Shown: one piece after another, positions 16,523-49,132 of the stretch
Numbering within the stretch: the stretch's first letter is position 1
Layout of the letters: each line of letters begins with the position of its first letter
Source of the DNA: an uncultured Gemmatimonadales bacterium
GTDB lineage: Bacteria; Gemmatimonadota; Gemmatimonadetes; Longimicrobiales; RSA9
Direction: 5' to 3'
Assembly: GCA_963798085.1 (NCBI GenBank)
Contig: CAWCRS010000008.1
Span: forward strand, 224,001-288,000
DNA length: 64,000 bases
The notes under the pieces: generated by a model
Databases searched by the model: none
Seen by the model: only the letters and a program-made list of their open reading frames with translations
What the model was told of the DNA's origin: nothing
Made by a program: the position numbers and the translations under genes

Positions 16523-17599
16523 ATGGCTGAGACTTTCACTCTTTCCGAGCTGGTCGTACCGGGGACGTACATCCGGGTGTCCGCGGAAGGGCTCATTGGC
16601 GTCGGCGGCATCTCGACCGGGAACATCGGCATTGTGGGAACCGCGGGTACTGTGGACGCCGAGACGCACATCCTCGGCGACTACCGCACGACCGGCGAGA
16701 CATTCGGCGCGTACGACGGCGCCAGCAACGGCAGCGGTACGCTGAATCTCACGCGGGCGCTCGAGATCGCCTACCGCAACGGCGGGCGCACCGTGTTTGC
16801 GCGCGCACTGGCGGCGGGCGCCAATGCGGCCGCGTTCTCCACCGCGTTCGACGAGATCATCAAGGAGGATGTCAACATCCTGATCGCGCCCGAGCTGTCC
16901 ACCAGCGATGCGCTCAGCGTGCTGGGCAGCGCCGTGGAGACGGCGGAGAATGCGGGTCGCGACATGATCGCCGTGGTGGGCTCCAATGCCAGCACCGTGG
17001 CCACCATCAACGGCCAGGTGCCCACCAACGATCGCATTGTCTTCACCGGTCCGGGCATCGTCGCGTTCAATGCGGCGCTGGGCGCCTCGGTCGCGCTCAA
17101 CGGCACCTACAGCGCCGCCGCCGTGGCCGGTCTGCTGAGCACGCTGTCGCCGCAGCAGAGCCCCACTAACAAGGTACTATCGGGTGTGGTGCAGCTGGCG
17201 CGGCGTTTCTCCTATGCGGAGAAGATCCAGCTGCTCAACGGTCGCGTGGCCGTGCTGGAGCAGCGCCAGGGCGTGCGCGTGGTGCGCGGCCTCACCACCA
17301 ATGACGGCGGCTTCCGCCAGATCACTACCCGCCGCATCACGGACTTTGCCAAGGCGGGCATCCGCAAGGCATCCGATCCGTTCATCGGCAAGCTGAACAA
17401 CCAGCGTGTGCGCAAGGCGCTCTACGGCGCCATCGACGGCTTCCTCACCACCATGCTGCTGGACGAGCAGCTCACCGGCTACACGCTCGAGGTCACGGCC
17501 TCGCGCCAGGACGAGATCAATGGCCGCGCGCTGGTGAACGCGGTGCTGCGTCCGACGTTCAGCATCGACTTCGTGGCGGTCACTCTGGTCCTCGAATAG
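16523..17599 (+). CDS. Contractile tail sheath protein (short, 358 aa)
   Basis: N-terminal PGTYI, AAAVAGL..SPTNK, VRVVRGLTT, RRITDF..FIGKLNN and C-terminal LRPTFSIDFVAVTL. GGAGG RBS. Confidence 0.93.
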   Translation: MAETFTLSELVVPGTYIRVSAEGLIGVGGISTGNIGIVGTAGTVDAETHILGDYRTTGETFGAYDGASNGSGTLNLTRALEIAYRNGGRTVFARALAAGANAAAFSTAFDEIIKEDVNILIAPELSTSDALSVLGSAVETAENAGRDMIAVVGSNASTVATINGQVPTNDRIVFTGPGIVAFNAALGASVALNGTYSAAAVAGLLSTLSPQQSPTNKVLSGVVQLARRFSYAEKIQLLNGRVAVLEQRQGVRVVRGLTTNDGGFRQITTRRITDFAKAGIRKASDPFIGKLNNQRVRKALYGAIDGFLTTMLLDEQLTGYTLEVTASRQDEINGRALVNAVLRPTFSIDFVAVTLVLE

Positions 17600-17613: not shown

Positions 17614-18108
17614 ATGGCGAATACGCGGGTGTACACGGGGGCAGATGGCTCGATCACACTCTCGGCGGGGCAGGGTGCCGAAGGCGACGCCGCTAACGCG
17701 GTGATCACGGCGTTCGACACCATCTCGGTGGGTCGCGTGCAGAACGTGCGCGTCGAGGTGCAGTCCGCCGTGAAGGCGTACCACGAGATCGGCCAGCGCT
17801 ACGCGACCGAGCTGCGCCCCGGCAACGTCACGGTGCGCGGCACGATCGGCCGCGCCATGATCAACGGCGCCATGCTGCGTCTGCTGCTGGGCGAGGCGGC
17901 CAATGGCCGGCCCAAGGCGAGCTGGGCGCAGCCTTCCTTCAACATCACGCTGCTCGCGGAAAACGCGGCGCAGCCGGGCGTGCGCAACACGCTCACGCTG
18001 CACGATGTGAAGCTGGAGTCGTGGGTCTACGCCATGCCCGAAGATGAATTCCTGGCGGAAGCGCTCACCTTCCAGGCGCTCTACGTCACCGTGGCGGATG
18101 AAGGCTGA
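17614..18108 (+). CDS. Tail tube protein
   Basis: 164 aa directly after the sheath. VGRVQNVRVEV..YHEIG..GNVTVRGTIGR..FNITL..TLTLHDVKL..EALTFQA matches the beta-rich tube pattern. Confidence 0.85.
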   Translation: MANTRVYTGADGSITLSAGQGAEGDAANAVITAFDTISVGRVQNVRVEVQSAVKAYHEIGQRYATELRPGNVTVRGTIGRAMINGAMLRLLLGEAANGRPKASWAQPSFNITLLAENAAQPGVRNTLTLHDVKLESWVYAMPEDEFLAEALTFQALYVTVADEG

Positions 18109-18581
18109 TGCTGAGCGCCGAGGAATTGCTCGCGGGCAGCGGGCTGGCGTACGAGGTGCGCCTGCCGCCGGAGGTATTGCGGCCGGGCGCGGGTGATGCG
18201 GCGAACGCGGGCGCGCAGACGGTGAAGCTGCGCCCGCTCACCGTGGCCGATCTCCAGCTGGTCACGCGCGCCGCCAGGGAGAGCGACACGCTGGTCGCCA
18301 CGCTCATGGTCCAGCGCGCGCTGATCGAACCCGCCATGACGGTCGTGCAGGTGGCGGGCATGCACGTGGGACTGCTGGAATTCCTGCTCGGCGAAGTCAT
18401 GCGCATCAGCGGCATGAGCGTGACCGAGCCCGAATTGCAGTCCGCGGTGGAGGCGCCGCTGGCGAAGGCGGCGCACGTGCTGGCGAAGGAGTTCGGCTGG
18501 ACACCGCCACAGGTCAGTGAGCTGACGCTGGGCCAGATCATGGTGCACCTGCAGATGCTGCAGCAGGAGGCATCACCTTGA
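18108..18581 (+). CDS. Tail assembly chaperone (G-like domain VKLRPLT fused in frame to a T-like FGWTP..ELT domain)
   Basis: Follows the tube with TGATG coupling. VKLRPLTVADL..ALIEP..VMRISGM, then LAKEFGWTPPQVSELTLGQ. Confidence 0.75.
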   Translation: MLSAEELLAGSGLAYEVRLPPEVLRPGAGDAANAGAQTVKLRPLTVADLQLVTRAARESDTLVATLMVQRALIEPAMTVVQVAGMHVGLLEFLLGEVMRISGMSVTEPELQSAVEAPLAKAAHVLAKEFGWTPPQVSELTLGQIMVHLQMLQQEASP

Positions 18582-19624
18582 GCCGCACGCCGCGCGAAGG
18601 CGGGTCCGAATCCATGCATATGGGCAACGCCGTGCTGCTGGCGCACGTCCGCCACGTGCGTTCGCTGCTGGCGCGGCTGCGCCAGCCGGACGCGCCCCTC
18701 TGGCGCCTGGCGGGGGATGCCGAGGCGCACCTGCGCGTGCTGACACCGCAGTTCGCGGCGCTCGAGGTGGACCCGTTCGCTGGCCTGCCGGCCGTGGCGT
18801 ACGAACAGCCCGTTGAGGGCGACGACGCACCCGCCCCCGTCCGGCGCGAAGTGGAACCGCCGTTGCCGCCGCCGCGTCCGGCGACGTCTTTGGAAGCAGC
18901 GGCCGAGCCTCTGCGTTCGGCGAACCCGGCCCGCGCCGGCGAGGTCGCGCCGAAGGGCCAACACGGTGTCAGAGGTGCCGTGCTGCCACTCTCGCCTCGC
19001 CGGCGGTCGCGCGCAACGGCGGCGGGCTCGGCGGGCAGTCGCGCGCACGCGCTCGGCGCCATCGAACCGCCCGCTCCTCCGGCTGCAGCCGCCCGGGCCG
19101 ACGCAGCAGGACCGCCAGCCGTGGCCGCTAATGTCGTGTCAGTAAGCGTGGAGAACGCGGGCGTTGTCGCGCAGCCGATGGATCTGGGTGCGCTGGCGGC
19201 GCGGGTGCTGGCGCAGGTCGCGGCAGAGAAAGCGCGCACGGCGCCGGCCGGGCCGGGCACGCGCGATCGACTGACACGGGCTGCGCCGCGGTCCGCGAGC
19301 GGGCCTGCTGCAGAGGCGGCGCTGCGCGGCGCCACGCTGCGCCCCGCCGTTCCCCGCAGCGTCGCGCGCGACAGGCGAGCCGGCAATGTACCGTCGGCCG
19401 ACGCGAGTCCCCGGGCAGCGCTGCTGCCATCATTGCCCGATGCCGCGCGCCCTGTGGCGGCGCCGCTGGCCGCACCTGTCGACGGGGCTGCGCGCGAGCC
19501 CGGGTTCTACTTCGACCCGCTCGCGCCGCGTGCGGCGGTGGCGGACGAGGAAGAGCTGCTGGCGGAGCGGGTCGCGCGCGTGCTGCACGAGCAGGCCCGC
19601 CGCCAGGGAGTGGACCTGACGTGA
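18578..19624 (+). CDS. Pro/Ala-rich low-complexity tail-associated protein with short helical caps
   Basis: Overlaps the chaperone stop. Disordered middle; C-terminal EEELLAERVARVLHEQARRQG helix. Start uncertain. Confidence 0.55.
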   Translation: MSRTPREGGSESMHMGNAVLLAHVRHVRSLLARLRQPDAPLWRLAGDAEAHLRVLTPQFAALEVDPFAGLPAVAYEQPVEGDDAPAPVRREVEPPLPPPRPATSLEAAAEPLRSANPARAGEVAPKGQHGVRGAVLPLSPRRRSRATAAGSAGSRAHALGAIEPPAPPAAAARADAAGPPAVAANVVSVSVENAGVVAQPMDLGALAARVLAQVAAEKARTAPAGPGTRDRLTRAAPRSASGPAAEAALRGATLRPAVPRSVARDRRAGNVPSADASPRAALLPSLPDAARPVAAPLAAPVDGAAREPGFYFDPLAPRAAVADEEELLAERVARVLHEQARRQGVDLT

Positions 19625-19657: not shown

Positions 19658-22600
19658 ATGGCCACGGTACTCGAGCAGATCCAGGCTGCGCTGTCCGGCA
19701 ATGACGCGAACGTTCGCGTCAGCGCGCAGGCCGGCAACCTGCAGGGCATCGGCGGCCTGGTCGCGGGTCTCGCGAAGAGTCCGCCCGCGCAGATCACGAA
19801 CCTGCAGCGCGCCTTCGCCGCGCTCGAGCTGCCCGACTTCCCCCTGGGCGATTTCGTCTCGCGCATCAGTGACGCGCGCGCGGCCCTGCCCACGGATGCG
19901 GGGGGCGCGCTCAGCGGCGTGCTGGGAGATCTCTCGAACATCGAGCAGGAGTTCAGCGGCGGCATCGCGTCGTCGCTGGCCAATGCACTCGTCGCCTTCG
20001 AAAAGGTGCAGGCGCTGGCCGACATCCGGTTCCACTGCACGAATGGCGCAGGCAGTGCACCGGCGGGCGGCGGCAGTGCGGGCGGAGCGGGCGGAGCGGG
20101 CGGCGCGGGCGGCGCGAGTGGCTCAGGCGGTGCCGGTGGCACGGGCAGCGCCACGGCGCCGCCGCCCACACCCATGGCGCTCGCGGTGGCGCAGGCTGAC
20201 AGCGTGTTCGACCGACTGCCGGTGCCCTTCGATCTGCGCGCGCTGCTGCGCTTCCTGCACGACAAGACAGCGTTCCGCCGCGAACCGCTGTTCCCGGCGG
20301 TGCTGCCGCTGTTCGACGATCTGCGCGATCCGCTGGACACGCTCATGGTGTGGGAGTCGCTGACACCGGCGCAGGTGCTGCAGCAGATCGCGACGGCGCT
20401 GCAGGATGCGAACACGCATGTACGCACGGGTGTGGAGCGCACGCTGGGTCCGCTGTTCGCCGACCTCGATGGCTTCATGGCCACCATGCCGGCGGCGGAC
20501 CTCGCCCGCATCGCGGACCGCATCACCATCCGTCTGGGCGAGCTGCGCGCCGCGGTGCAGGCCGGCAATGTGGGCGGCACAGGCGGGGCCGTGAGCGAGA
20601 TCGGTGCGCTGCTCGACGAATACGATGCGCTGCGCCCCGCACTGGCGCCTCGCATCAATGCGGTGCCGGCGCTGCGTACACGTCTCGCCGAAGTGGCGGA
20701 GGATCTGGACCTCGGCATGGCCAGCATGGTCTCGATCCTGAAGCCGGGCGGCGGCGCGCTCACTCGCCTGGCCATGCCGCGCTTCGAATGCGCTGAACCG
20801 GCTGCAGATCTGGGCGCAGGGCATGGCCGACTGGCTGCACAATGTGGCCGGCGCCATTGACCTCTCCGCCATCCAGGGCCCCATCGGCACCATCGCCGGC
20901 CGCGTCGAGTCCGTGGCCGAGGGGCTGCAACAGGGCATTACCACGATCACGGTGGACGTGCAGAGCGTGTTCACGACCGTGCAGTCCGTGATCGACACGC
21001 TCGATCCTGCGCAGCTGCAGGCGGAGGTGCAGGCCGCAGTCCAGCGTTTCCGCGACGAGATCATTGCGCGTGTCAGCGCCCTGGTCGGCCCGGCGCGCGC
21101 GGCGGTGCTTCAGGCTGTGACCGCGATCGATCAGGCCGTCGGTGCATTCGATCCGGGCAATGTCATTGCGGCCATCTCCGCTGCCATCAATGCGCTGGCC
21201 GGCGTGCTGGGCGATGGTCCCATCGGCCAGGCCATGAGTGCCGTGCACGATGGCCTCGAAGCGGTGGCGAAGCAGCTGACGGCGCTCTCCTTCACACCCA
21301 CCGCCGACTCCGTGGTGAGCGTGATCGACTCCCTCCGATCCACGCTCGAGGCCATCGATCCGGCTCTGCTGCCCTCGCCGGCAGCGGATGCGCTCAAGTC
21401 CGCCGCATCCGTGCTGCCGGGCGATCTCGAGCCCATCACGGATCCCATCATCGACAGCTTCGGCGAGATCGTGGACAGCGGGCCGACCCCGGTTCTCGAG
21501 CAGGTGCGCGATGCGCCCGCGCAGTTGCTCGAGGCCGTGCGCAGCTTCGATCCCGAATCGCTGGTCGGCGATCAGCTGACGGGACCGTTCAATAGCGTGC
21601 TGCGCTCCATGGAGCAGTTCCGGCCGAGCGATCTGCTGAAGCCAGTGGGCAAGGAGCTGGACGCCTTCAAACAGCAGCTGCGCAAGGCAGCCAGTCCGGG
21701 GCGCGCAGCGCAGGCGCTGCAGGCACCGTTCGACGCGCTGAAGCAGACGCTCGCGAACTTCGATCCCAATGCACTGGTGCAGCCGCTGCAGGGGGCGCTC
21801 GCAACCGTGCGCGACGGCCTGCTCAAGGTTGTGCCGGTGGATGAGACGTTCGCCATCATCGACGAAGGTCTTGCCGCCGTCCAGCGCGTGCTTGACACCA
21901 TGGACGCGGTGGTGCGAGTCCTGCGCCGTGTGCACGAGGCTGCGAATTCGCTCGTCGGTGTGCGCGGACAGCTGGACGCGTGGGTGAACAATGTACTGGC
22001 GCGCGTCGAATGGCATTACGGACACGTCGAGCCTGGTGCCGTTGCTGGACAACCTGCGCACCGCGCTGGATGGCACGCGCGCGTCGGCGATCGGTCCGCG
22101 TTTCGCCGCGGGCACGGCCACGGCGCGTGCTGCGCTCGACAGCGTGAACGGCACGACCCGTCTCGCGTCGCTGATCCAGGCGCATCGTGCCATCCCGCGG
22201 CCCGCGCTGCAGGCGCTGCCGGCCTCGGCGCAGAAGACCGCACTGCAGGCGGTGCTGGATCGCTTCGATCCACTGCTGCCCGCGTTCGGTTCGCCATGGC
22301 AGCAGCTGGGCGCGCTGCGCCAGGGACTCGTCGAGGGTGACGCCGAGCTGCAGGCGCTGCTGCCCGTGTGGGACGATCGCTTCCACTTCGCGGGCGGCTC
22401 ACTCGACGAGCTGCGTCAGGCCCAGCCCACCACGGCGCAGTTGCGCGCGTTCGCGCAGCAGGCGCTCGAGACGCACTTCGTCGAGCCCATTGCCAACGCC
22501 CTGTCGTTTCTCGATCCGGCAAGAGAGTTCCTCGATGCTCTGCTGACTCCCTTCGAGGATCTGATCACCACGCTGCACGCGCGCCTGGCCGCACTGCTCA

Positions 22601-23121
22601 CGGGCCCGGCATCACTCACGGCGATTCGCGATGGGCTGGGCCGCATCGACGACCTGGTGAAGGGACTGGACCTCGAGTTCCTGCGCACCAGCCTGCACAC
22701 GCTGTTCGACGACATTCGTCACAAGCTCGACGACGTGAGCCCGCAGAAGCTGGCGGAAGCGCTGGACAGGAGCTTCGCGGCGGTGCTGGACGGCATCACG
22801 ATCGATCTGATCCTGCCGCCCGCCAATGTGAAGCAGATCGACAAGACATACAGCGACGTGGTGGAGAAGCTGCGGTTGCTCGACCCGTCGCACATCGTGA
22901 ACAATGTGGTGAAGCCGCTCTTCGAGCAGAAGGTGGTGCCGCTCGTCGACAAGTTCGACGTCTCGCCCTTCATCGACACGATCAACGATCGCCTGGGTTC
23001 GCTCGACGATGAGCTGCGCGCGGAAATCGGGCATGTGAATCAGGCGTACATCAAGCTGCTCGCGGCACTGCCCTCCGGCAGTACGCCGAGTGCCAGCGTG
23101 TCCGTCTCGGTAGCCGCATGA
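19658..23121 (+). CDS. Long amphipathic alpha-helical protein A (~1153 aa after repairing +1 insertions at ~20787 and ~22009); tape-measure-like
   Basis: Three consecutive ORFs (19658, 20823, 21991) align end to end with the intact paralog at 26217-29669 (e.g. REPLFPAVLPLFDDLRDP / NEPLLPAVIPVWDDLRDP; DSGPTPVLEQV / DSGPVPVLEQV). The 3464 nt span minus 2 is a multiple of 3. Confidence 0.8.
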
Positions 23122-23146
23122 GCAGACGAGCGGCAGGGCGGTGCGC

Positions 23147-25615
23147 ATGGTGATGGGCGAAGTGCTGACGCAACCGCAGCGCATGCGACGCGCAACCGTC
23201 ATGGATCCGGGCATTGCCCTGATCAATGACCTGACCAGCCTGGCCACACGACTCGCGCAGGACGCGGAACAGAGCGCTCAGCTTGCGCAGGTTGCACGCA
23301 GTGCGCTGGAAGACGCAGTCCGCACACTGGTGCAGCAGCGGCTGGGAGCGCTGAAGTCGGTATTGCCGAAGCTGGCGGACTGGCTGCTGCGCGTGCTGCG
23401 CGCGACCACCGGCATCGGGCCCGAGCTGATCCCCACGTCTTCCCCCGCGGGTGTGCTGTCTCTGATCAGCCAGCTCATCGACACGATGGCGCAGGCGGCG
23501 CAGAACGGAAATGCCGCGCGCATTCAGCCGTACGTCGCCGAGCTGCTGGGCATCGTGCAGCACGATCTGGGGTTGAGCCTGCCCGCGCTCGAGACTGCCT
23601 TCTGGGGCGTGATCGACTCCATCATTGCACGTCTCGAGGCACTGCCGCTCGAGGCGGATCGCCGCGAGCGCGAGAACCGGCTGGACACGATTCGCGCACT
23701 GCGCCGCATGCGCCGGCTGGTACGCGGCCGGTTCCCGCTGCCCGCACTGGATGCCGATCGCATAGCTGATGCTCTGGCGGCAACGCTGCGCACCATCGAC
23801 GCGGCCGCGCTGGGCCGCGCGGCGCAGTGTGTGGCCCAGGCGATCGAGAAAGTAGCCGATGCGGGCCAGGCCATCGAGCAGCTGGTGCCGCTCGGCGCGC
23901 TGACCGGGTTCCGCAGCCTGGGCGCGGCTGCCGCGGTGGCCAGTGGGGAGACCTACTGCTGGTACGCCAGCTGGCTGTATGAGGAGGACGTGATCATCAA
24001 TGCGGCGGGCACGGAGATCCGGCGCGGCGACACCGTCATTGCCAGCGGCACGGGCCTGACCTTCGCCAGCATCCCCGACTTCACGACGGCCACGCCACAC
24101 TACACCTTCAACTGCGTCAGCCTCGCCACCATGGAGACGCTGACCAACGTCGTGTTTGTGCTGGCCGACGCCATCATCGTGGTGTGCCATCTGGTGTCGA
24201 TCGAAACTGGCGACGTCGCTTCCAATGCCCTGAATGTGGGCGCCTTCGGCTTCCTGGGCGTCATGGGCAAGCTGGTGGGCAGGAGTCCGCTCGCCTCCAG
24301 CGGTGTCGAGGACTGGGTCTACCCCCTGGCGGCCTCGTTCGCGGGCTCGTTCCAGGGTATTCACACGAAAGCGTCGGGCGGCAACATCTTCCTCATGTGG
24401 GTGACGCTGTTCCTGCCCGACTTCATCGAGGCGGTCATCTACAAGCAGGTCTCGCTCATTGCCCGCGACCTGGTGCTGTCGCTGCTGACACTGATCAACT
24501 ACGACGGGCCGCTCGAGTCGTCCGGCTCACCCGATACGCGCCCGCTCAACCGCATTCACATCGACGGCGTGGCCTGGGTGGGCGAGTGGCTGGGCAGTCT
24601 GGTATTCATGACGTTCTATCCCCGCGAGGAGTACGCGCAACCCTTCGCCTCGGGCGGGCACGCGGCCAAGTTCTTCCTGTTCTGGGACCTGTTCCTTAAC
24701 AACCTGTTCTACGTGCTGGGCCGGCTGGTGGGCTGCATCCTGGGCATGTCGGTGGCGCAGGTGTTCGACTTCGACACATGGGTGAAGCCCATGCCGCTCA
24801 AGCTGCTGCTGCTCAATCCGCTCATGTTCATTGTGAGCCTGTACATGGACAAGGAAGGGGACACGAAGGACGGACATTACAACCCGACCGGTGCGGAATA
24901 CGCCGGTTACCCGGACAAGGCGTCGTCGCCCTATCAACTGCCGTTCCCGAAGGACAACACGTACTACCTGGTGCAGGGCAACCAGGGATTCTTCAGTCAC
25001 CACCACCTCAATTTCGATCAGCAGTACTCGTACGACTTCTCCATGGACCAGGACGATCCCATCCTGGCCAGCCGCCCGGGCACGGTCGTCGATTATTTCG
25101 ACTGGATCAAGGACAACACCAATCCGGACACAACGGATATGACTGCGGCGACGACGGAAGCGACCGCGTCCGGCTTCCTCGTACCCGGCCAGACCACGTC
25201 CGACAGCTGGAACTTCATTGCCATCCGCCATGATGTGGACGATGCGGGCGCCGCGCTCCCGCCGGATAACACGCACGACAAGGCGGCGGGCGGCAGCGTG
25301 GTGACGACGTACGCGATCTACGGTCACGGGCGGAAGGGCAGTGTGCGCGATGCATTCCAGGCGAGGGGCGTGGCCGCCAACGCGATCATCGGTACGAAAG
25401 TCAAGCAGGGCCAGCGCATCATGCGCTCCGGTGACACGGGCGTGAGCTTCAACAATCACCTGCACATCATGGTGCAGGAAGGGCCGGCGAGCACGACGGC
25501 GCCGCCGGTTTCGCGGGGCGCGCTGTCGCAGCCGACGCTCCCGTTCGTGTTCAAGGACGCGGGCGTGCCAAAGCACCTGGACTGGTACGAGTCGAGTGTG
25601 ACGGAGGTAGTCTGA
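23147..25615 (+). CDS. Helical N-domain + multi-pass hydrophobic region + C-terminal M23 metallopeptidase, paralog 1
   Basis: QGNQGFFSH..YSYDF, ILASRPGTVV, YAIYGH and VKQGQRIMRSGDTGVSFNNHLH. Several hydrophobic segments; no signal peptide. Confidence 0.82.
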   Translation: MVMGEVLTQPQRMRRATVMDPGIALINDLTSLATRLAQDAEQSAQLAQVARSALEDAVRTLVQQRLGALKSVLPKLADWLLRVLRATTGIGPELIPTSSPAGVLSLISQLIDTMAQAAQNGNAARIQPYVAELLGIVQHDLGLSLPALETAFWGVIDSIIARLEALPLEADRRERENRLDTIRALRRMRRLVRGRFPLPALDADRIADALAATLRTIDAAALGRAAQCVAQAIEKVADAGQAIEQLVPLGALTGFRSLGAAAAVASGETYCWYASWLYEEDVIINAAGTEIRRGDTVIASGTGLTFASIPDFTTATPHYTFNCVSLATMETLTNVVFVLADAIIVVCHLVSIETGDVASNALNVGAFGFLGVMGKLVGRSPLASSGVEDWVYPLAASFAGSFQGIHTKASGGNIFLMWVTLFLPDFIEAVIYKQVSLIARDLVLSLLTLINYDGPLESSGSPDTRPLNRIHIDGVAWVGEWLGSLVFMTFYPREEYAQPFASGGHAAKFFLFWDLFLNNLFYVLGRLVGCILGMSVAQVFDFDTWVKPMPLKLLLLNPLMFIVSLYMDKEGDTKDGHYNPTGAEYAGYPDKASSPYQLPFPKDNTYYLVQGNQGFFSHHHLNFDQQYSYDFSMDQDDPILASRPGTVVDYFDWIKDNTNPDTTDMTAATTEATASGFLVPGQTTSDSWNFIAIRHDVDDAGAALPPDNTHDKAAGGSVVTTYAIYGHGRKGSVRDAFQARGVAANAIIGTKVKQGQRIMRSGDTGVSFNNHLHIMVQEGPASTTAPPVSRGALSQPTLPFVFKDAGVPKHLDWYESSVTEVV

Positions 25616-25619
25616 TCGC

Positions 25620-26213
25620 ATGAAGATCAAACCGATGCTCGGCGACTGGGAGGTGCCTCACATTGCAGGCATCGAGACGCTCGAGCGCCGCGAGCTGGCG
25701 GAGCTGGAGATTCCCGGGCGCACGGGCAGCCTGTTCCAGGACCTGAACGCCGCGCCCACGCGCATTGCCATTCGCGGCAGCCTCTTCGGCGATGCGAACC
25801 GCGATGACTTCCTGCAGCAGGTGCGCGACAAGTTCCGCGCAGGCGAGCCGGTCACGTTCGTCGCCGACATCATTACCGCGACTGAGGTGCAGTACGTCCT
25901 CATCGAAACCATGCATTTCGCGGAGAGCGGTGTTGCGCCCGATGAGACCAGCTACTTCCTGGTGTTGCGCGAGAGTCCGCCGCCGCCACCGCCACCGGAC
26001 CCACTGGGCGGCCTCGATGCGGGGCTGCTGGATCAGGCGGGCTCGCTGCTCGACACGGTGACGGGCGCGCTCGATGCCCTCGACGCGCTGGCCAACATTC
26101 CCGACCTGCAGGATCCCACGCCACCGCTGCGTGGCATTCTGGACGGTGTGTCCGGCGCGCTCGATGGACTGGGCGGCGTGACCGGCTCCATCAGCGATCT
26201 CTTCGGCAGCTGA
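25620..26213 (+). CDS. Tail tube initiator / baseplate-proximal protein (Mu gp43 'DNA circularization' N-domain / P2 gpU-like)
   Basis: RRELAELEIPGRTGSLFQDLNAAPTRIAIRGSL..GEPVTF..VLIE..YFLVLRE, then a poly-Pro linker and a helical tail. Confidence 0.72.
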   Translation: MKIKPMLGDWEVPHIAGIETLERRELAELEIPGRTGSLFQDLNAAPTRIAIRGSLFGDANRDDFLQQVRDKFRAGEPVTFVADIITATEVQYVLIETMHFAESGVAPDETSYFLVLRESPPPPPPPDPLGGLDAGLLDQAGSLLDTVTGALDALDALANIPDLQDPTPPLRGILDGVSGALDGLGGVTGSISDLFGS

Positions 26214-26216
26214 CGC

Positions 26217-29200
26217 ATGGCGACCGTCTCCGCGCAGCTCGACGCCAGCATGGCCGGCAATGATGTGTCGGCACGCGTGGGCACGCAGATCACGCAGCTG
26301 AACGGCATCGCGACGCAGCTGGCCACGCTGATCCAGCATCCGCCCGGTGCTGTGAACCAGCTGTTGCGCGCGTTCGGCGATCTGCCGCTGCCCGAGTTCC
26401 AGGTCGCGGCGCAGCTGTCCACCCGGCTGATCGAGATGCGCGGCGCCGTGCCCACCGATGTCAGTGGACTGCTGCGTGGCGTGCTCGATGGCATCGCCCA
26501 ACTGCAGACCGACTTCGGCGGTGCACTGGGTGGCCAGCTGGCGAAGGCGCTGCTGCTGATCGAGCGACTGCACGCGCTGACGCAGATCGACCTGCGCTGT
26601 CTGGGTGGCGCTTCGTCGAGCACGGCGACACTGACGGCGGGCGGGGCAGCGGGCGCAACTGGCGCGAGCGGCGTGGCGGCGGCGACCGGCACGAGCGCGG
26701 CCACTGCACCCTCGCCGTCCGCCACGCAGGACACGGTCGCACGTGCTAACACGATCCTCGATGCCATACCGCAGCCGCCCGGCATCGAGGGTGTGCTGCG
26801 CTGGGCGCACAGCGGCACCGTGATCGAACGCAATGAGCCGCTGCTGCCCGCCGTGATCCCGGTCTGGGATGATCTGCGCGACCCCGTGGATACGCTGATC
26901 ACGTGGGACACCATGACACCGGCGCAGCTGGGCGTCGAGCTGACCACGTCGCTCACCGACACGGCCGCGTTCCTGCGCGAGACGCTGGCACGCGAGCTGG
27001 AGCCGCTGGCCGCGGACATCAGCGCGCTGCTGACGCCGCTGCCGCAGGCGGATCTCACGCGCATTGCGGATCGGCTGACCGCGCGTCTCGTTGCGATCGG
27101 TGCTGCAGTGCACGCCGGCAACCTCAGCGGCATGAGTCCGGCCGCGACGGAAGTGCACGCGCTGCTCGATGAGTACAGCACATTGCAGGCGACACTGCCC
27201 GTCACGCTCGCGACCGACGCGACGCAGCTGCGGGGCCGGCTGGCCGAGCTGGCGGATGATCTGCATGAAGGCTGCTGCCACGCGATCTCGATTCTGCGTC
27301 CGGGCGGCGCGGTCCTCATCAATCTTCCGGCCGGCCTCGAGGCCAATGCGCTGGCGGACCTGCGCAACTGGCTCACCGGCGTTTCCGACTGGCTGGAAAA
27401 TGTGCTGAGCGCCGTCGATCTGGACGCGCTGCAGGCGCCCATCAGGCAGCTGGCGAGTGGTGCGCAGGGTGTGGCCGCTTCGCTGGATGAAGCCCTGGCC
27501 ACGGTCGTGGTGCAGGTGCAGAGCCTGTTCCAGCAGCTGGAATCGCTCATCGATGCGGTCGACATCGCCGCTATAACGACCAGCGTGCAGACCGCGATCA
27601 CGCAGTTCCGCACCGAGGTGGTGCAGCGCATCACGGGTGCGCTCGCTCCTGCGCGCACGGCGATCGAACAGGCCGTTGGCGCACTCGCCGCTGCGGTCAA
27701 TGGTTTCGACCCCGCCGACATTGTGGCCGCGCTGCACGATGCCATTGACCGGGTGGCGGGCGTGCTGCAGGACCCGGGCGTGACCGCGGCGATCGGCCAG
27801 ATCAAAGGTGTGATCGACACCGCCACGCAGCAGGTGCAGTCGCTTTCCTTCACGCCCGTGACCGATCAGGTGATTGCCGTGATCGATGCGCTGAAAGGGA
27901 AGGTGCAGGAGATCGACCCGGCGCAGCTGCCCGATGCCGCAAAGGCGGCGTTAGCGGCGGCCGCGCTGGTGCTGCCCTCCGATCTGCAGCCCATCACGGA
28001 CCCGATCGTGGTGGATTTCAGCGGTCTGGTGGACAGCGGACCCGTGCCCGTGCTGGAGCAGGTGAAGCAGCAGCCGGCGAAGCTGCTCGAGCAGGTGACG
28101 CGCTTCGAGCCGTCGAAGCTGATCGGTGATACACTGTCGCAGCCGTTCCAGAAGCTGCTGCGCGACCTGGATGCGTTCCGGCCGAGCAAGCTGCTCAAGC
28201 CGCTGGGCAGGGAGCTGGACACCTTCAAGCAGACGCTGCTGCGCAGCGCCTCGCCCAGTCGTGCGCTGCAGCCTCTGGCCGGTCCCTTCGGCGAAGTGAC
28301 GGCCGCACTGGGCCGGCTGGATCCGACACAGCTTACCAAGCCGATCGACGACGCACTGGCCGAGGCCGGCAAGAAGCTGTCAGACCTGCTGCCCGTGCAG
28401 GACCTGTTCGATGCGATTGATGCAGTGCTCGGCGCCGTACGCCGTTTTCTCGACAGCTATGACGCCATGCTCGCGCTGCTGCGCCGCCTGCACGGGCTCG
28501 CCGATGCCCTGGCGAATGCGCCCGCCGACCTGGTCGCCTGGATCAACCGCGTGCTGGACAGGATCGAGCAGGTGCCGGATCCCGCGGCCGTCAATCTGGG
28601 CGTCGTAGCCCTGCGTGATGCGGTCGATGCGACGCGCGGCGCCGCCATCGGGGCGCGCTTCAATGCGTTGACCGCGACATCGCGGGCCGCCTTGGACAGT
28701 GTCGATGGCGGGAACCGGCTGTCCGCGCTGATCACGGCGTATCACGGCGTTTCGCGACCCGCGCTCGAGGCATTGCCCGACTCGCCGACGCGCACATCGC
28801 TGCTTGCGGCACTGGACCGCTTCGATCCGCTGACCCCCTCGTTCGGTGCGCCCTGGCTGGCATTGGGTCAGTTGCGCAGCGCAGTGGGCGGCGCCCGCGC
28901 GGCGCTCGAGGCGCAGCAGAGCCAGTGGGACACCGACTACCACTTCGCGGGCAGTGCGCTCTCCGATCTGCGACGCGATTCCGCCACACCGGCCGAACTG
29001 CGCGCGTTCGCGCAGGAGCTGCTGGACGCGCAGCTGGTGCAGCCGATCGCGGCCGTGAGTGCATTCCTGGAGCCGGCGCGCGTGGTCTTCGGCAGCATTC
29101 TCGACGGCGTGGAAGATCTGCTGGGCCGCGTGCGCAGCCGCCTTGATGCGCTGCTGCTCGGGCCGCAGTCGGTGCAGGGTCTGCGCGATGCCATGGGTGA

Positions 29201-29669
29201 CATTGTCGCCGACGTGACCAGCCTGAACGTCGATTTCCTCCCTGACAGCCTCAACACGCTGTTTGGCGCGGTGCGGGCCAGACTCGAGGCCATCTCCCCC
29301 GCAGCACTGGGCAAGCCGCTGGATGACGTGTTCAAGGCCATCCTGGACACCTTGAGCCTCGAGGTCGTGCTGCCGAAAGCGGAGCTGCAGGCGCTGGACG
29401 CCACTTACGAAGCGTTCGTCGCGAAGATCCGTCCGCTCGATCCGGGCCAGCTCGTGATCGAAGCCGTGCAGCCGGTCTGGGATCAGACTGTGCTGCCCCT
29501 GCTGGCGGCGTTCGATCTCACGCCCGTGATCGAGGCGCTGATCGAGAAGCTGCATTCCCTCGATGACAGTCTGCGCGCGGAGCTGGAACGCGTGAACGGC
29601 TCGTACCAGCAGCTGCTCGCCGCCATCCCGTCGGGGGATGTCAGCGTCAGCGCGAGTATCTCGCTATGA
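26217..29669 (+). CDS. Long amphipathic alpha-helical protein B (1150 aa); tape-measure-like
   Basis: Intact ORF, collinear paralog of 19658-23121. Recurrent (F/L)DP..L helical repeats and a Gly/Ala/Thr linker near residues 130-170. Confidence 0.82.
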   Translation: MATVSAQLDASMAGNDVSARVGTQITQLNGIATQLATLIQHPPGAVNQLLRAFGDLPLPEFQVAAQLSTRLIEMRGAVPTDVSGLLRGVLDGIAQLQTDFGGALGGQLAKALLLIERLHALTQIDLRCLGGASSSTATLTAGGAAGATGASGVAAATGTSAATAPSPSATQDTVARANTILDAIPQPPGIEGVLRWAHSGTVIERNEPLLPAVIPVWDDLRDPVDTLITWDTMTPAQLGVELTTSLTDTAAFLRETLARELEPLAADISALLTPLPQADLTRIADRLTARLVAIGAAVHAGNLSGMSPAATEVHALLDEYSTLQATLPVTLATDATQLRGRLAELADDLHEGCCHAISILRPGGAVLINLPAGLEANALADLRNWLTGVSDWLENVLSAVDLDALQAPIRQLASGAQGVAASLDEALATVVVQVQSLFQQLESLIDAVDIAAITTSVQTAITQFRTEVVQRITGALAPARTAIEQAVGALAAAVNGFDPADIVAALHDAIDRVAGVLQDPGVTAAIGQIKGVIDTATQQVQSLSFTPVTDQVIAVIDALKGKVQEIDPAQLPDAAKAALAAAALVLPSDLQPITDPIVVDFSGLVDSGPVPVLEQVKQQPAKLLEQVTRFEPSKLIGDTLSQPFQKLLRDLDAFRPSKLLKPLGRELDTFKQTLLRSASPSRALQPLAGPFGEVTAALGRLDPTQLTKPIDDALAEAGKKLSDLLPVQDLFDAIDAVLGAVRRFLDSYDAMLALLRRLHGLADALANAPADLVAWINRVLDRIEQVPDPAAVNLGVVALRDAVDATRGAAIGARFNALTATSRAALDSVDGGNRLSALITAYHGVSRPALEALPDSPTRTSLLAALDRFDPLTPSFGAPWLALGQLRSAVGGARAALEAQQSQWDTDYHFAGSALSDLRRDSATPAELRAFAQELLDAQLVQPIAAVSAFLEPARVVFGSILDGVEDLLGRVRSRLDALLLGPQSVQGLRDAMGDIVADVTSLNVDFLPDSLNTLFGAVRARLEAISPAALGKPLDDVFKAILDTLSLEVVLPKAELQALDATYEAFVAKIRPLDPGQLVIEAVQPVWDQTVLPLLAAFDLTPVIEALIEKLHSLDDSLRAELERVNGSYQQLLAAIPSGDVSVSASISL

Positions 29670-29694: not shown

Positions 29695-32205
29695 ATGGTG
29701 ATGGGCTCCGTGCTGGTGCAGCCGCAGCGCGTGCGCCGCGGCCGGCACGCGGATCCGGGGATCTCGCTGTTCACGGATCTGTTCAGCGTGATTACTCGCC
29801 TGTTGACGGACGCGAAACTGGGCGGCCGGCTGGGCGACATCGCCGGCGAGGCGCTCGTCGCCAATTTCCAGCGCATTGCGACGGAGCGCGTCGCGCGCAT
29901 CGCGCAGGCGGGCCCGCACGCGGTGCAGCGGCTGCTCGATCTGCTGCGCGCGATAACCGGTGTCAGTGCGACGGTTCGCATCGCGGCGCCGGCGGACGCG
30001 CTGGAACTCGCGCGTCAGCTGCTGGACCACTTCGCGGATGGTGTGGAAGGGGTTACCGCGGTGCGTCTGCGCCCGCATGTCGCGGCATTTCTGGACATTC
30101 TCGAGACCGACCTGGGCTTCAGCCTGGTGCAGGCGGAGGCCGAGTTGTGGCGCATCGTCCACGACATCATCGACCGCCTCGAAGCCGAGCCGCCGGAGCC
30201 GAACGTGCGCGCCCGCGAGAATCGCCTCGAGGTCATCTGTCTGCTGCGGCGCATCCTGCGCGTACTCTCGGGTTTCACCATGCCGCGCATCAATGCGGAT
30301 GGGCTCGCCAGCCTCATGGCGTCGCTGCTGGCCGGCCTCAGGGCGCCGGCGTTTGCCGCCCGCCTGCGCTGCGTGGCGCGCGCACTGGAGAGCGCGGCGC
30401 GTACCGGCCAGAGCGTGACCGAGCTGGTCGCGATCGGCTCGTTCGCGGAGTTCCGCAGCCTGGGCGCGGCCGCCGCGGCGGCGGAGCAGCAGGAACGCTT
30501 CTGCTGGTACGCCACGTGGGTGCTGGGGAAGAACACGGTGATCAGCAAGGACCGGTCAGAGATCCGCTTTGGTGGCAAAGTCGTCATGACTGGCGAGAAC
30601 CTCGGCCTGGCCGATATCCCCGAGTTCCGCGACACGAACACAGTCGACGGCAAGCCGTTCTTCTACACGTACGCCAGGGTCGATCTGGAGGCGCTCGACA
30701 CCATCGCGTTCGTGAGTGCCGTGGCGGCGGACGCACTCATTGTGCTGTTCCACACGATCTCAATGGAGGAAGGCGACTTCATCGCCAACCTCGTAAACAT
30801 GCAGTTTGCCATGCTGGCGGGCATTTACAAGGCGGCCGCCGCCAGGCCCATGCTGCCGCTCTGGGCCGAGAACTGGCTCATTCCAATGGGCATCACGATT
30901 CCGGCCTCGCTCGAAGGCATCCACACGCACGCCGCCCCGGCGCAGGGCGCCATTCTGTGGCTCACGCTTTTCGGACCGGATTTCGGCGAGGAACGGTTGT
31001 ACCGGGGGTACGGCCTGACCGCGCGCAACGCGCTGTTATCCATCCTCACACTGGCGAATCACAGGAACGCGCCCAACGGCGTGCCGGAGAATCACAAGGT
31101 CGCGGCCGGCCTCAACGACCTGCTGGGCTTCGTGGTCAGCATGCTGTACAGCCTGAAGGTGCCACGCGACGAGTGGGGCCTGGTCAATACACAGGTGACG
31201 CCGCGCGACTTCAATGCGGGCCTTGTCTTCGGCTGGGTGCTGGGCTTCGCATCGCTGGGCTGGCTCACCGGTCGCGTGGTGGGCGGGCTGCTGGCGTGGG
31301 CGATCACGCGCGAGGTGGCGCCCTGGGCATGGTTCGGCCGGCGCTGGTGGTCCCTCTTCGAGCACTGGCTCTGGTACGCCAGCTTCCTGTACTGGTGGAT
31401 CGAGGGCGACACCGACGGTGGCCATTACAACTCGGCCGGCGGACCGGCGTACGCCGGCTATCCGCCGAAGGAGAACTCGCCGTACACACTGCCCTACGTG
31501 GCTGGAAACTCGTGTTATGTGGGCCAGGGCAACATGGGCCTGTTCAGCCACAACAAGCTGAATGGCGACCAGACGTATGCCATCGACTTCGCACTGGATC
31601 AGGACGAGAAGATCCTGGCCGCGCGCGCCGGCACCGTCGTCGACTGGTTCGACTGGGTCACCGACGACGAGAACATCAGGACGGCATGGCCTGACGCGGC
31701 CGCCGCGGACAATCCCACGGGTGTGCAGCCGGTCGTGCTGCCGGATGGAACATCCCAGACCACATCCTCGGTCAAGAATTTCATCCTCGTGCGTCACGAC
31801 CGCGACGAAGACGGCAACCTGCTGCCCGTGGGCACGTTCAATGACACGCACGATCGGGGCGCGGGCAACACGCCGACACGCACGTACACGGCGTACCTGC
31901 ACGGTCGCAAGGGAAGCATCCGCGAAGCGTTTGCCGCACGCGGCATTACGCCCGTCAACATCATGGGTCAGGTACTGCTGCGCGGGCACTGGATCATGCG
32001 CACGGGCGCCACGGGCAAGGCGCCGCACAACCATCTGCATTTCGCGGCCAGGCCGGGCCCGGACAACGCCGAATTCGTGGTGCCGTACAGCTCCATGGGT
32101 GACGAGCTGCCGGTCGTATTCCGCGATGTCAGCAACTTCCTGGGCACCGACGGCGTGCCGACGAAGCTGAACTGGTACACGTCGTCCACCGCGGAGCGGT
32201 CATGA
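29695..32205 (+). CDS. Helical N-domain + multi-pass hydrophobic region + C-terminal M23 metallopeptidase, paralog 2
   Basis: GQGNMGLFSH..YAIDF, ILAARAGTVV, YTAYLHG and TGATGKAPHNHLH. GGAGG RBS before MVMGSVLVQPQR. Confidence 0.82.
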   Translation: MVMGSVLVQPQRVRRGRHADPGISLFTDLFSVITRLLTDAKLGGRLGDIAGEALVANFQRIATERVARIAQAGPHAVQRLLDLLRAITGVSATVRIAAPADALELARQLLDHFADGVEGVTAVRLRPHVAAFLDILETDLGFSLVQAEAELWRIVHDIIDRLEAEPPEPNVRARENRLEVICLLRRILRVLSGFTMPRINADGLASLMASLLAGLRAPAFAARLRCVARALESAARTGQSVTELVAIGSFAEFRSLGAAAAAAEQQERFCWYATWVLGKNTVISKDRSEIRFGGKVVMTGENLGLADIPEFRDTNTVDGKPFFYTYARVDLEALDTIAFVSAVAADALIVLFHTISMEEGDFIANLVNMQFAMLAGIYKAAAARPMLPLWAENWLIPMGITIPASLEGIHTHAAPAQGAILWLTLFGPDFGEERLYRGYGLTARNALLSILTLANHRNAPNGVPENHKVAAGLNDLLGFVVSMLYSLKVPRDEWGLVNTQVTPRDFNAGLVFGWVLGFASLGWLTGRVVGGLLAWAITREVAPWAWFGRRWWSLFEHWLWYASFLYWWIEGDTDGGHYNSAGGPAYAGYPPKENSPYTLPYVAGNSCYVGQGNMGLFSHNKLNGDQTYAIDFALDQDEKILAARAGTVVDWFDWVTDDENIRTAWPDAAAADNPTGVQPVVLPDGTSQTTSSVKNFILVRHDRDEDGNLLPVGTFNDTHDRGAGNTPTRTYTAYLHGRKGSIREAFAARGITPVNIMGQVLLRGHWIMRTGATGKAPHNHLHFAARPGPDNAEFVVPYSSMGDELPVVFRDVSNFLGTDGVPTKLNWYTSSTAERS

Positions 32206-32212
32206 GGCGCGC

Positions 32213-34663
32213 ATGGTGATGGGCTCCGTGCTGGCGCAGCCGCAGCGTGTGCGGCGAGGCCGGGTGGCCGGGCCGGAGGCCGCGCTGATCGCGGACCTGG
32301 GCAGCCTGCTCACTCGCCTGACCACGGACGCCAGCCGCGGCGGCCGCATCGCCGGAATCGTGCAGGACGCGCTGCTCGCCGCCTTCGAGCGCATCGTCAA
32401 TCAGCATCTCGCAAAGGTGCAGCAGGCCGGGCCGCGCGTACTCCAGCGGCTGGGCGACCTGGCGCGCGCGATTACGGGTCTGGATGCCAGCGTGCGCGTG
32501 AATACGCCGGCGGACGCGCTCGACATCGCGCGCCGGCTGCTCGATCACGTCGCGGACGGCATGGAAGGGTTGAGCGCGGCGAAGATCCAGCCTCACGTCG
32601 TCGCCTTCATCGACATTCTCGCGACGGATCTGGGCTTCAGCATCGAGCAGGCCGAGTCGGAGTTCCGCGCCCTGTTCGACGACGTCATCAACGCGCTCGA
32701 AGCGGCGCCGCCCGAGCCCTCGGTGGAGGCACGCGAATCCCGCCTCGAGGCTGCGTGCGTGCTGCGCCAGCTGCGCCGCCACGTGCTGGCGCGGTTCCAG
32801 CTGGAGCGCATGGATGCCGCCCGCCTTGCCAGCCGCCTTGCCCGGCTGGTGAGCAACCTGCGCGCGCCCGCCTTCGCCAGCCGCCTGCGCTGCGTGGCGA
32901 GGGCACTCGAACAGGCAGTTAGTACGGGCCGCGCAGTCCAGGACCTGGTGCCCGCCGGCGCGTTCGCCGGCTTCCGCAGCCTGGGCGCGGCGGCCGCGGC
33001 GGCCGCACAGAAGGAGCAGTACTGCTGGTACGCGTCCTGGGTGCTGCATGACGACGTCGTGATCAGCAGCGACGGCACCGGGATCCGCAAGGGCAACACC
33101 GTCATTGCGCACGGCCGCGACCTGACGCTGGCCGACATTCCGCAGTTCCTGCCGGGCCACGACCCGCATTTCTCGTTCGCCCGGTTCGGCGTCGAAACGC
33201 TGGAAACCATCGCGCTGGCCAGCGCCGCGGGTGCGGACGCGCTGATGTTCCTGCTGCACTTCATCTCGCTGGAGCAGGGCAATGTGATCGCCAACAGCGT
33301 GAACCTGCCGCTGGCCTTCACGTCAGGCAGTCTCAAGGTCGTGCTCCGCCATCCGCTGATGGGTCCCATCAAGGAGCAGTGGCTGCTGCCGCTGGCGCTC
33401 ACGTTCCCGGCATCGCTCGAGGGGCTGCACGACAAGGCCACCGGCAAGAACCGCTTCCTGATGTGGCTCACGCTGGTGGGCCCGGATGTGGGCGAGGAGC
33501 GACTGTACCGCTTCTACGGCAGTGCGCTCCGCAATGCGCTGTTATCCACGCTCACACTGCTGAATCACAAGGAGCCGGCGGCCGCTGGTGTCCGCCCGGA
33601 GAACTTCAAGGAGCTGGACGGCTTCTCCGATTTCATCGGCTACATCATCGCCATCATGATCTCGACACACATGAGTCGCGATGACTGGTGGATCCTCAAT
33701 GCGCAGGTCACGCCCAGCCAGATCCAGTGGTCGCTCTTCTTCTGGCACTGGCTGGGCAAGTCCACGCTCTGCGCCATGACGGGGCGGCTGGTGGGCGGCT
33801 TCTATGCCTTCATCGCGTCGCAGGCCAGGGCGCCCTTCAAGTCCTGGCTCTTCCCCAGCTGGTACATGATGCTCGTGCACTGGTTCTGGTACATCGCATT
33901 CACCTACTGGCACATGGATGGCGACACCGATGACGGCCGCTACAACGGCCACACCGGCGGCGCCGCCTTCACCGGCTATCCGTCGAACGGCAGTTCGCCG
34001 TACACACTGCCGTATTCCGGCAGCCTGTGTTATGTGGGGCAGGCCAATGAAGGCGTGTTCAGCCACAACCACCGCAACGGCGATCAGACGTACGCCATCG
34101 ACTTCTCGCTCGACCAGGACAGACACGTGCTGTGCGCGCGGCCCGGCACGGTCGTCGACTGGTTCGATTTCGCGCCCGACAACGAGAACACGTCCACCGC
34201 GGCGGATCCGGCCATCGTCAAGGCCGGACAGACACACAACAGCGGCGCCAACTTCGTGCTGGTGCGCCACGACATCGATGACAATGGCGTGGACATACCC
34301 GTCGGCACCTTCGACGCCGTGCACGATCTGGGCGAAGCCGGCGTGGCGGGTCGCACGTACGCGCTGTATCTGCACGGCCGCAATGGCAGCGTGCGCGAGG
34401 CTTTCCTCAGCCGCGGCATCAACGCGGTCGACATCATCGGCCAGGTCGTGAAGCGCGGAGACTGGATCATGCGCGCGGGTGACACCGGCGTCAGCTTCCA
34501 CAACCACCTGCACATGGCGATCTCCATCGGACCCGACGTGAAGCTGCCCACCAGCGTGAAGCTGTCCGGACTGAGCGATCCTGACATCCCGTATGTGTTC
34601 AAGGATGTCGACGGTCCGGTCACCAAGCTGAACTGGTACCGCTCCAGCACGGTGGAGACCTGA
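32213..34663 (+). CDS. Helical N-domain + multi-pass hydrophobic region + C-terminal M23 metallopeptidase, paralog 3
   Basis: GQANEGVFSH..YAIDF, VLCARPGTVV, YALYLHG and VKRGDWIMRAGDTGVSFHNHLH. Confidence 0.82.
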   Translation: MVMGSVLAQPQRVRRGRVAGPEAALIADLGSLLTRLTTDASRGGRIAGIVQDALLAAFERIVNQHLAKVQQAGPRVLQRLGDLARAITGLDASVRVNTPADALDIARRLLDHVADGMEGLSAAKIQPHVVAFIDILATDLGFSIEQAESEFRALFDDVINALEAAPPEPSVEARESRLEAACVLRQLRRHVLARFQLERMDAARLASRLARLVSNLRAPAFASRLRCVARALEQAVSTGRAVQDLVPAGAFAGFRSLGAAAAAAAQKEQYCWYASWVLHDDVVISSDGTGIRKGNTVIAHGRDLTLADIPQFLPGHDPHFSFARFGVETLETIALASAAGADALMFLLHFISLEQGNVIANSVNLPLAFTSGSLKVVLRHPLMGPIKEQWLLPLALTFPASLEGLHDKATGKNRFLMWLTLVGPDVGEERLYRFYGSALRNALLSTLTLLNHKEPAAAGVRPENFKELDGFSDFIGYIIAIMISTHMSRDDWWILNAQVTPSQIQWSLFFWHWLGKSTLCAMTGRLVGGFYAFIASQARAPFKSWLFPSWYMMLVHWFWYIAFTYWHMDGDTDDGRYNGHTGGAAFTGYPSNGSSPYTLPYSGSLCYVGQANEGVFSHNHRNGDQTYAIDFSLDQDRHVLCARPGTVVDWFDFAPDNENTSTAADPAIVKAGQTHNSGANFVLVRHDIDDNGVDIPVGTFDAVHDLGEAGVAGRTYALYLHGRNGSVREAFLSRGINAVDIIGQVVKRGDWIMRAGDTGVSFHNHLHMAISIGPDVKLPTSVKLSGLSDPDIPYVFKDVDGPVTKLNWYRSSTVET

Positions 34664-36402: not shown

Positions 36403-36411
36403 GCGACCGTC

Positions 36412-36795: not shown

Positions 36796-36796
36796 G

Positions 36797-41826: not shown

Positions 41827-41828
41827 AC

Positions 41829-45268: not shown

Positions 45269-45281
45269 CCAGGGCAGATCG

Positions 45282-49058: not shown

Positions 49059-49132
49059 AGCGCTGAGCAGAGCGCGACGCCCGGAGCGGCGCGCGTCAGG
49101 CATTGACTACACGAGAGCGAGCGGGAGCGATC

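Follow-up and report, generated by a model that had tools for sequence, protein, structure and literature searches.

A long helical protein predicted to form a rod, and its M23-fold neighbor, beside the tube initiator of a headless contractile-tail operon

A 64,000-nt stretch of contig CAWCRS010000008.1 (assembly GCA_963798085.1, positions 224,001 to 288,000) from an uncultured Gemmatimonadales bacterium, hereafter the window, contains a tightly packed operon for a headless contractile tail at window positions 15344-47357. Two of its genes encode collinear helical proteins of about 1150 residues (A1 and A2), and three further paralogous genes encode proteins with a predicted M23 peptidase domain (B1 to B3). 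An earlier, sequence-only reading of this DNA had described the A pair as a possible heteromeric tape measure. We propose instead that A extends a tube initiator of the phage Mu gp43 type and scaffolds B at the tip of the needle, a proposal to which we give about an even chance of being correct. In a bolder form, which we offer tentatively and think more doubtful, the initiator would bear a ring of three-helix rods some 40 nm long; surrounding the spike, these would form a sleeve or a conduit across the envelope and deliver a wall-cutting, membrane-engaging protein. The whole would then be an undescribed, phylum-spanning class of headless machine, comparable to a podophage-like ejectosome placed outside a contractile tail, with several kinds of tip in this genome built from two rods and three enzymes.

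Position of A in the operon and its relatives

A2 is a single intact open reading frame (ORF; 26217-29669, 1150 aa), while A1 is distributed over three overlapping ORFs (19658-20860, 20823-22340 and 21991-23121) that are collinear with A2 and share 43, 45 and 47% identity with it, respectively. Joined with an X at both breaks, A1 is 1152 aa long and shares 43.4% identity with A2 across 1139 columns, in the same order throughout, which bears out the description of two collinear paralogs of near-equal length. Other features singled out in the sequence-only reading are also present, namely a cysteine (Cys127/128) followed by a Gly/Ala linker (70% and 51% Gly+Ala in A1 and A2) and the C-terminal strings SASVSVSVAA and VSVSASISL; the (F/L)DP repeats exist but are scarce, with seven in A1 and four in A2. 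No third copy of A was found in the 6.2-Mb genome.

A profile search with A retrieved 1175 representatives at E ≤0.001, and family figures are given for the best 150 of these. Among them, 106 full-length, unfused proteins measure 1116-1200 aa with a median identity of 27%. The cysteine is present in 56 of the 106, the Gly/Ala linker ranges from 13 to 85 aa and the terminal strand from 0 to 26 aa; these are the least conserved parts of the family. A distant subfamily (P0022 and P0183-P0199; 460-500 bits) measures 1130-1144 aa where full length. Neither 50,697 phage records nor IMG/VR contained a match to A, and a stricter first look, whose count is a floor, matched it in none of 400 other genomes of the same phylum.

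Scans with the A alignment yielded 61 loci (30 genome and 31 metagenome, several of them near-duplicates); the scan patterns do not match A1's own sequence, and loci with only an A1-type gene would be missed. The initiator gene lies directly before A in 50 of 50 informative loci (11 of the 61 end too early), and B directly follows A in 53 of 53 (8 of the 61 end too early), with an A-B gap of -32 to +33 nt at 38 of 40 junctions. The gap between chaperone and initiator measures 985-1463 nt and contains neither A nor B in all 39 loci showing both genes. Given this order, the normal layout is a single A following the initiator, and the window has gained an A+B cassette ahead of it. In the window the genes run: first gene, sheath, tube, chaperone, a 348-aa gene, A1, B1, initiator, A2, B2, B3 and hub. 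Only A1 is sited between chaperone and initiator, where the sequence-only reading expected a single tape measure; A2 follows the initiator. The extra A1-B1 cassette and a third B bring the window total to two A and three B; L061 likewise has a second B copy, and L003 a partial one. Carriers of the operon belong to the Pseudomonadota, Acidobacteriota, Actinomycetota, Chloroflexota and Thermodesulfobacteriota and include the cultured Sulfitobacter sp. D35 and Teichococcus deserti M3; Saprospiraceae have initiator fusions. The closest B relative with a name comes from Longimicrobiales. At one locus (L028:7261-14486), possibly a decaying one, A is missing about 165 residues and a separate hub match is absent.

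Phylogenetic placement with FastTree makes A1 sister to A2 plus P0002-P0004 and unites B1-B3 in one clade (Shimodaira-Hasegawa-like support 100). On these trees, the A and B duplications are old and lineage-specific; the duplication in the window is itself a local elaboration. A relative leaning toward A1 (P0147) is 51% identical to A1 and 43% to A2.

The link to the tube initiator is made by gene fusions. In nine of the best 150 representatives, and additionally in P0019, an initiator is fused to the N-terminus of A, and these fused proteins carry a complete tube initiator ahead of A. A profile of the window initiator matches the N-terminus of the fusions (E 1e-37 to 1e-46); PF07157 (DNA_circ_N) scores above cut-off in the fused P0119, which is linked to the window initiator at E 3e-40, while the window's own initiator gene has no Pfam match. 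By these comparisons the window initiator appears to be of the Mu gp43 type, with DNA_circ_N followed by a helical domain. Its acidic amphipathic tail is conserved and has no detectable relation to A. In the accessible text of a description of Mu, gp43 combines a tube-like domain with a helix-rich domain; the latter extends as far as the wedges and is believed to pass into the host (PMC11915804). The fusions put the N-terminus of A where the helix-rich domain of Mu gp43 exits, which would site A at the tip; A may be a greatly enlarged form of that domain, outside the tube.

On this basis, an A rod at the needle end of the headless contractile tail would be suspended from the tube initiator and hold or guide B. 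Several rods together could enclose hub and spike in a cage-like or sleeve-like structure up to about 40 nm long, and on contraction the rods would travel with the tube tip, bringing B to the target envelope. There, the M23 domain of B would cut peptidoglycan while its hydrophobic helices meet the membrane. The extra A1-B1 cassette and the third B would give a mixed or alternative tip composition rather than two rulers, and tube length would be set by the 348-aa gene rather than by A. Two other options in the sequence-only reading, a carrier or translocon protein and alternative particle types, come near to this proposal; the initiator fusions point to the baseplate or tip in preference to the lumen. 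Neither the three paralogous B genes nor the 348-aa gene at 18578 figured in that account.

Fold of A and the question of a ruler

Covariation within A was analyzed as mutual information with average product correction on 221 sequences (effective number 176), with 200 column permutations, which do not preserve phylogeny, as the reference. A parallel stripe at i/i+576 pairs residues ~370-565 with ~945-1133 (score 2.23 against a permutation maximum of 1.46), and an antiparallel stripe at i+j=1710 pairs ~570-735 with ~1139-970 (2.56 against 1.44). A further stripe connects ~190-350 with ~967-804. Between the first two strands, which make up the third pair, the strongest band falls at sum 1130, and the parallel and antiparallel stripes predict 1134 for it; the stripes are thus mutually consistent. 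Relatedness alone does not yield such register-specific stripes. Three segments (370-520, 520-730 and 950-1140) are repeats of one another, homologous by hhalign at 93-98% against 11-62% for reversed controls, and the parallel stripe coincides with the repeat offset whereas the antiparallel stripe does not. Compensatory A1-A2 changes at 78 stripe pairs (20 at both positions, 32 at one, 26 at none) were uninformative.

The simplest reading of these covariation data is that A forms a long hairpin turning near residue 855 with a third strand alongside, giving a three-stranded rod. An α-helix rises 0.15 nm per residue, and a rod of at most ~280 residues is thus predicted to be ~42 nm long, or less if kinked by proline. 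Amphipathic and acidic in composition, at about -8 per 100 aa, A has an AlphaFold model that is all-helical (pLDDT 74, predicted template modeling score [pTM] 0.41), with the most confident regions at ~220-360 and ~770-950. Structural matches to the model span, for example, residues 274-880, 373-981 and 503-1117, wide ranges that suggest that distant parts of A pack together.

No homolog of A is claimed from the fold searches. Foldseek with the whole model returned generic helical matches (TM-score ~0.05), and the best VIA match (Z 8.9), to small helical bundles, is within reach of any helical protein. Searches of PDB sequences with the profiles of both A and B returned, M23 apart, noise from amphipathic or designed helices, and Pfam matches to Baculo_PEP_C and Apolipoprotein were treated as compositional. 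The ESM Atlas offered unnamed clusters only for A and nothing for B 260-600.

A tape measure would be one role for a long, all-helical, internally repeated protein, with A setting a tail of ~170-260 nm and A1/A2 acting as a heteromeric ruler or specifying two particle lengths. A1 occupies the tape-measure slot and A has a weak match to PHROG 1272 (tape measure; E 0.0086), though none to a Pfam or NCBIfam tape measure. We nonetheless consider this role very unlikely. A is absent from that slot in all 39 related loci, where the family normally follows the initiator and the slot is otherwise occupied, and the in-register, long-range covariation describes a folded-back chain and is incompatible with an extended one. 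The lack of a match to A in the 50,697 phage records and IMG/VR argues in the same direction, and equal A1 and A2 lengths could not make two particle lengths. The length conservation that had been taken as a ruler signature finds another explanation: the core (171-1138) spans 944-981 aa with a standard deviation of 6 in the 106 proteins, fixed to ~0.7% across phyla whereas the slot gene varies by 12%, and any insertion or deletion would need three simultaneous places in a three-strand register, so that no ruler role is needed.

The better candidate for the ruler is the 348-aa protein encoded at 18578, whose gene family alone fills the interval between chaperone and initiator in all 39 loci. 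Across 38 of them (L012, with a broken ORF, was dropped) this protein measures 308-479 aa, a coefficient of variation of 0.12. It is rich in Pro and Ala, with conserved ends and an unalignable middle, and had no Pfam match in the 24 members scanned. A C-terminal helix motif, L-x-EQA-x-x-x-G[VI]DL[ST], is present in 32 of 36 (L012, L026, L030 and the window left out). The tape measures of extracellular contractile injection systems (eCIS) have helical middles, and their length sets particle length, with a coefficient of 0.229 nm per residue in AlgoCIS, according to the accessible text of 10.64898/2026.05.27.728243. At that coefficient the slot gene corresponds to ~80 nm and A to ~260 nm. Unlike these known rulers, the slot protein has a Pro-rich, non-helical middle, a difference that speaks in favor of A as tape measure. 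We infer that the slot gene is the ruler, and a candidate for an unstructured one; this makes a testable case for a Pro-rich, unstructured protein as a contractile-tail ruler.

The M23-fold protein and its possible roles

The three B proteins are mutually 38-52% identical. In the B model (pTM 0.75), a helical N-domain reaches to residue ~250 and is followed by a hydrophobic helical domain at ~330-570 and a C-terminal beta domain. This beta domain aligns with many M23 chains (Z 9-10.4, root-mean-square deviation [rmsd] ~3 Å over 120-150 residues), Foldseek gives a probability of 0.98-1.0 for M23 with E above 0.01, and Pfam M23 stays below cut-off. An H-D-H-H-H set is retained in 45 of 45 B copies; from their LasA-type spacing we take these His and Asp residues to be metal or catalytic ligands. 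B is thus predicted from its modeled fold to be an M23 peptidase and a cutter of cell walls. For the ~570 residues of B outside the M23 domain, no solved relative is convincing. Proteobacterial B proteins (L016:13462-17691, L008, L011, L036 and others) contain insertions after the N-domain, near residue 253-320, of 100-165 aa, reaching 510 aa in the Marinobacter locus. Those scanned had no Pfam match, and they are possibly specificity modules.

Alternatively, A and B might be lumenal ejection proteins that are stored unfolded and ejected on contraction, whereupon A would refold into a periplasm-spanning conduit and B would open the wall and inner membrane; podophage gp15/gp16 provide the analogy. 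The predicted rod length of ~28-42 nm is about the width of an envelope, A is amphipathic throughout, and M23 domains occur in a chain of the cyanophage A4 pre-ejectosome (9k2v; Z 8.7, rmsd 3.3, 130 aligned) and in the phi29 tail-tip enzyme (3csq). Such a role is unlikely in our view. The initiator fusions link A to a domain that exits outside the lumen in Mu, as far as the accessible part of PMC11915804 describes it, and the operon has no AAA loader, which cargo in the AlgoCIS lumen requires according to the portion consulted of 10.64898/2026.05.27.728243. Beyond M23, there is no sequence match to ejection proteins.

The machine might also stay in or on its producer, with A anchoring the baseplate to the envelope and B cutting the cell's own peptidoglycan for tube passage or particle release. 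No holin, endolysin, head or terminase gene was recognized in the operon by Pfam, NCBIfam and PHROG scans, and the window offers no candidate for an immunity gene in the interval from B to the hub. B is present with its catalytic residues intact in every informative locus, as befits a core part and not a swappable toxin. Against this, most A homologs have no transmembrane anchor, and B opens with a long helical domain and has no signal peptide apparent by eye. The repeated gain of extra B copies, in the window, L061 and partially L003, better fits diversification of a payload, and we regard confinement to the producer as quite unlikely.

Several observations weigh against a tip scaffold as well. 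The machine is known from genes alone, A has no solved relative, and rod length and oligomer are deduced around a model with a low pTM. The parallel stripe lies close to the offset of two homologous internal repeats and could reflect contacts between chains. Hydropathy lends membrane insertion weak support: A has no clear transmembrane segment, and segments above 1.8 are absent from 38 of 44 A homologs and from 24 of 41 B. No clear charge complementarity was found between A and B, B being only mildly less acidic than A. A complex prediction for A2 370-1140 with B2 5-230 (score 0.00) speaks neither for nor against binding. The pairing of A with B may be non-cognate, since an A2-type P0002 and a B1-type P0025 are found on contigs of equal size, which disfavors strict A1-B1 and A2-B2 pairs. 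The target could be either other cells or the producer's own wall, and the 984-aa A of L028 departs from the fixed length. A profile likeness between the C-terminal repeat of A and the N-domain of B (68-73%; reversed control 15%) was too weak to be taken as homology.

Frame breaks in A1

The second break in A1 maps to 22008-22012, on a GAATG/CATTC site, while the first is only bracketed (best scores at 20750-20826, with frames permitting 20742-20860) and has such a site at 20786. When the first 900 of the genome's 1229 long ORFs were compared with their paralogs, 109 frame switches were located genome-wide, and GAATG/CATTC is found at 28 of these against 5.8 expected, about a fivefold excess. 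The motif is not over-represented across the genome overall, only at frameshift sites. In the window, the wedge gene (39027-41826) and a molybdopterin oxidoreductase gene (49103-51368) are each frame-broken with the motif nearby, and the wedge is one ORF in relatives.

A1 could be a pseudogene with real breaks, leaving A2 as the only copy used in the particle. Both breaks are present in the assembly, and three of the five GAATG/CATTC sites in A1 are unbroken. Among the public runs listed as containing this DNA none was RNA and one, at a low share, was DNA; its contigs, aligned to the region, span neither break and give no direct proof of error. Set against this are the motif enrichment at frameshift sites and its presence near both A1 breaks and those of the window's two other broken genes, the retention of 80 of 82 conserved columns in A1 (family median 94%), and P0147, which is open across both positions. 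The breaks are for these reasons likely to be a systematic assembly error, and loss of A1 seems to us highly improbable. The motif enrichment suggests that base-calling errs systematically here, perhaps because the motif is methylated, and other broken genes in this assembly are to be judged accordingly.

Relation to known contractile systems

The phage Mu tail has the same gene order of sheath, tube, chaperone, ruler slot, initiator, hub, spike, gp25 and J, and the same DNA_circ_N-type initiator with a helical C-terminal appendage, as given in the accessible text of PMC11915804. In contrast to Mu, the window operon is without head and DNA-packaging genes, has a PAAR gene, and inserts between initiator and hub a 1150-aa rod, with no phage homolog, and an M23 protein. 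Afp/PVC-type eCIS (Afp, PVC, MAC, AlgoCIS and tCIS) share with it a headless contractile sheath-tube-baseplate operon, spike and PAAR, and the window operon has their contractile sheath, baseplate J, gp25 and spike, with no head genes. However, it has no match to T4_gp19 tube, Pvc16_N, AAA loader, CIS_TMP or eCIS_core. It is eCIS-like in its working but without the Afp/PVC markers, and Mu-like in layout. The same genome contains a second, canonical eCIS cluster (L069, G000:C1:80800-96900) with sheath, T4_gp19 tube, Pvc16_N, AAA ATPase, eCIS_core protein, CIS_tube and baseplate J. A search of the genome for CIS_TMP gave no match anywhere, and the controls likewise gave none.

The nearest functional analogs, to the extent of the accessible portions of PMC11126660 and PMC13277306, are Streptomyces Tme and Sle1, tape-measure-related CIS effectors. 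They too are large helical proteins that neighbor the initiator, have hydrophobic helices and end in an enzyme at the C-terminus, and they interact with initiator or spike. Tme and Sle1 are described there as DUF4157-linked, largely disordered and encoded upstream of the initiator, whereas in the window the helical scaffold (A) and the enzyme (B) are separate chains encoded downstream of it, with a folded A and a predicted M23 peptidase as B. The operon also has no eCIS_core match. The phi29 gp13 and cyanophage A4 pre-ejectosome proteins present the same M23 fold in a virion-tip setting, but the likeness is confined to the ~130-residue M23 domain of B. R-type tailocins are also headless with a simple, phage-like baseplate; the window, in contrast, carries A, B and PAAR and is without a recognizable lysis cassette or phage tape measure. 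In relatives, the family scans mostly covered genes up to the operon ends.

Surveys of contractile injection systems (CIS) set out from Afp/PVC-type gene families, according to the accessible text of PMC12210884, and would miss this conserved 14-gene operon because it lacks them. Our literature search, outside of which lay the supplementary gene tables of CIS surveys and most subscription papers, found no description of the 14-gene headless tail family. The operon may represent a new solution to the passage of a needle across the bacterial wall and to the carriage of cargo without an AAA loader, none having been found in it. Direct testing is feasible since cultured carriers exist.

Gene content of the operon

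The annotated genes are collected in Table 1. The first gene had no match in Pfam, NCBIfam or PHROG, and the tube candidate had no match to T4_gp19 or another Pfam family and no PDB sequence match below E 0.5. The distal part of the operon comprises hub, spike, PAAR, gp25, J, wedge and three fibre-like genes.

Table 1. Genes of the headless contractile-tail operon, in window coordinates
Feature	Coordinates	Strand	Basis
First gene, 363 aa; putative cap/terminator	15344..16435	+	Role suggested by position; tblastn matches just upstream of sheath in 30 related loci
Tail sheath	16523..17599	+	PF04984, PF17482; PHROG 279
Likely tail tube	17614..18108	+	Position after sheath; 53-68% identity in related loci shown
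Likely tail-assembly chaperone	18108..18581	+	Putative role, from position and conservation
348-aa low-complexity protein in tape-measure slot; best ruler candidate	18578..19624	+	Slot occupancy, variable length
A1, extra helical rod copy, two frame breaks	19658..23121	+	Likeness to A2
B1, helical N-domain, hydrophobic helical domain, M23-fold domain	23141..25615	+	H620, D632, H729, H773, H775
Tube initiator, Mu gp43 / DNA_circ_N type, poly-Pro linker, acidic amphipathic tail	25620..26213	+	Profile against fused proteins
A2, helical rod protein in the family's normal position	26217..29669	+	Family comparison, covariation
B2, second B paralog	29695..32205	+	38% to B1, 52% to B3; catalytic set intact
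B3, third B paralog	32213..34663	+	Paralogy to B1/B2; catalytic residues
Hub (GPD), spike, PAAR, gp25-like sheath initiator, baseplate J	34667..39061	+	Pfam, PHROGs
Wedge with propeller repeats (frame break) and three conserved coiled-coil/fibre-like genes; operon end	39027..47357	+	

One gene of the fibre region (43331-45268) combines an N-terminal helix-hairpin-helix (PF12836) with C-terminal coiled-coil repeats, and the motif also occurs in L070. Four permeases of the MacB/FtsX type, one of them after a PadR gene, flank the operon (190-2625, 8652-15013 and 54331-57120) and are ordinary in character.

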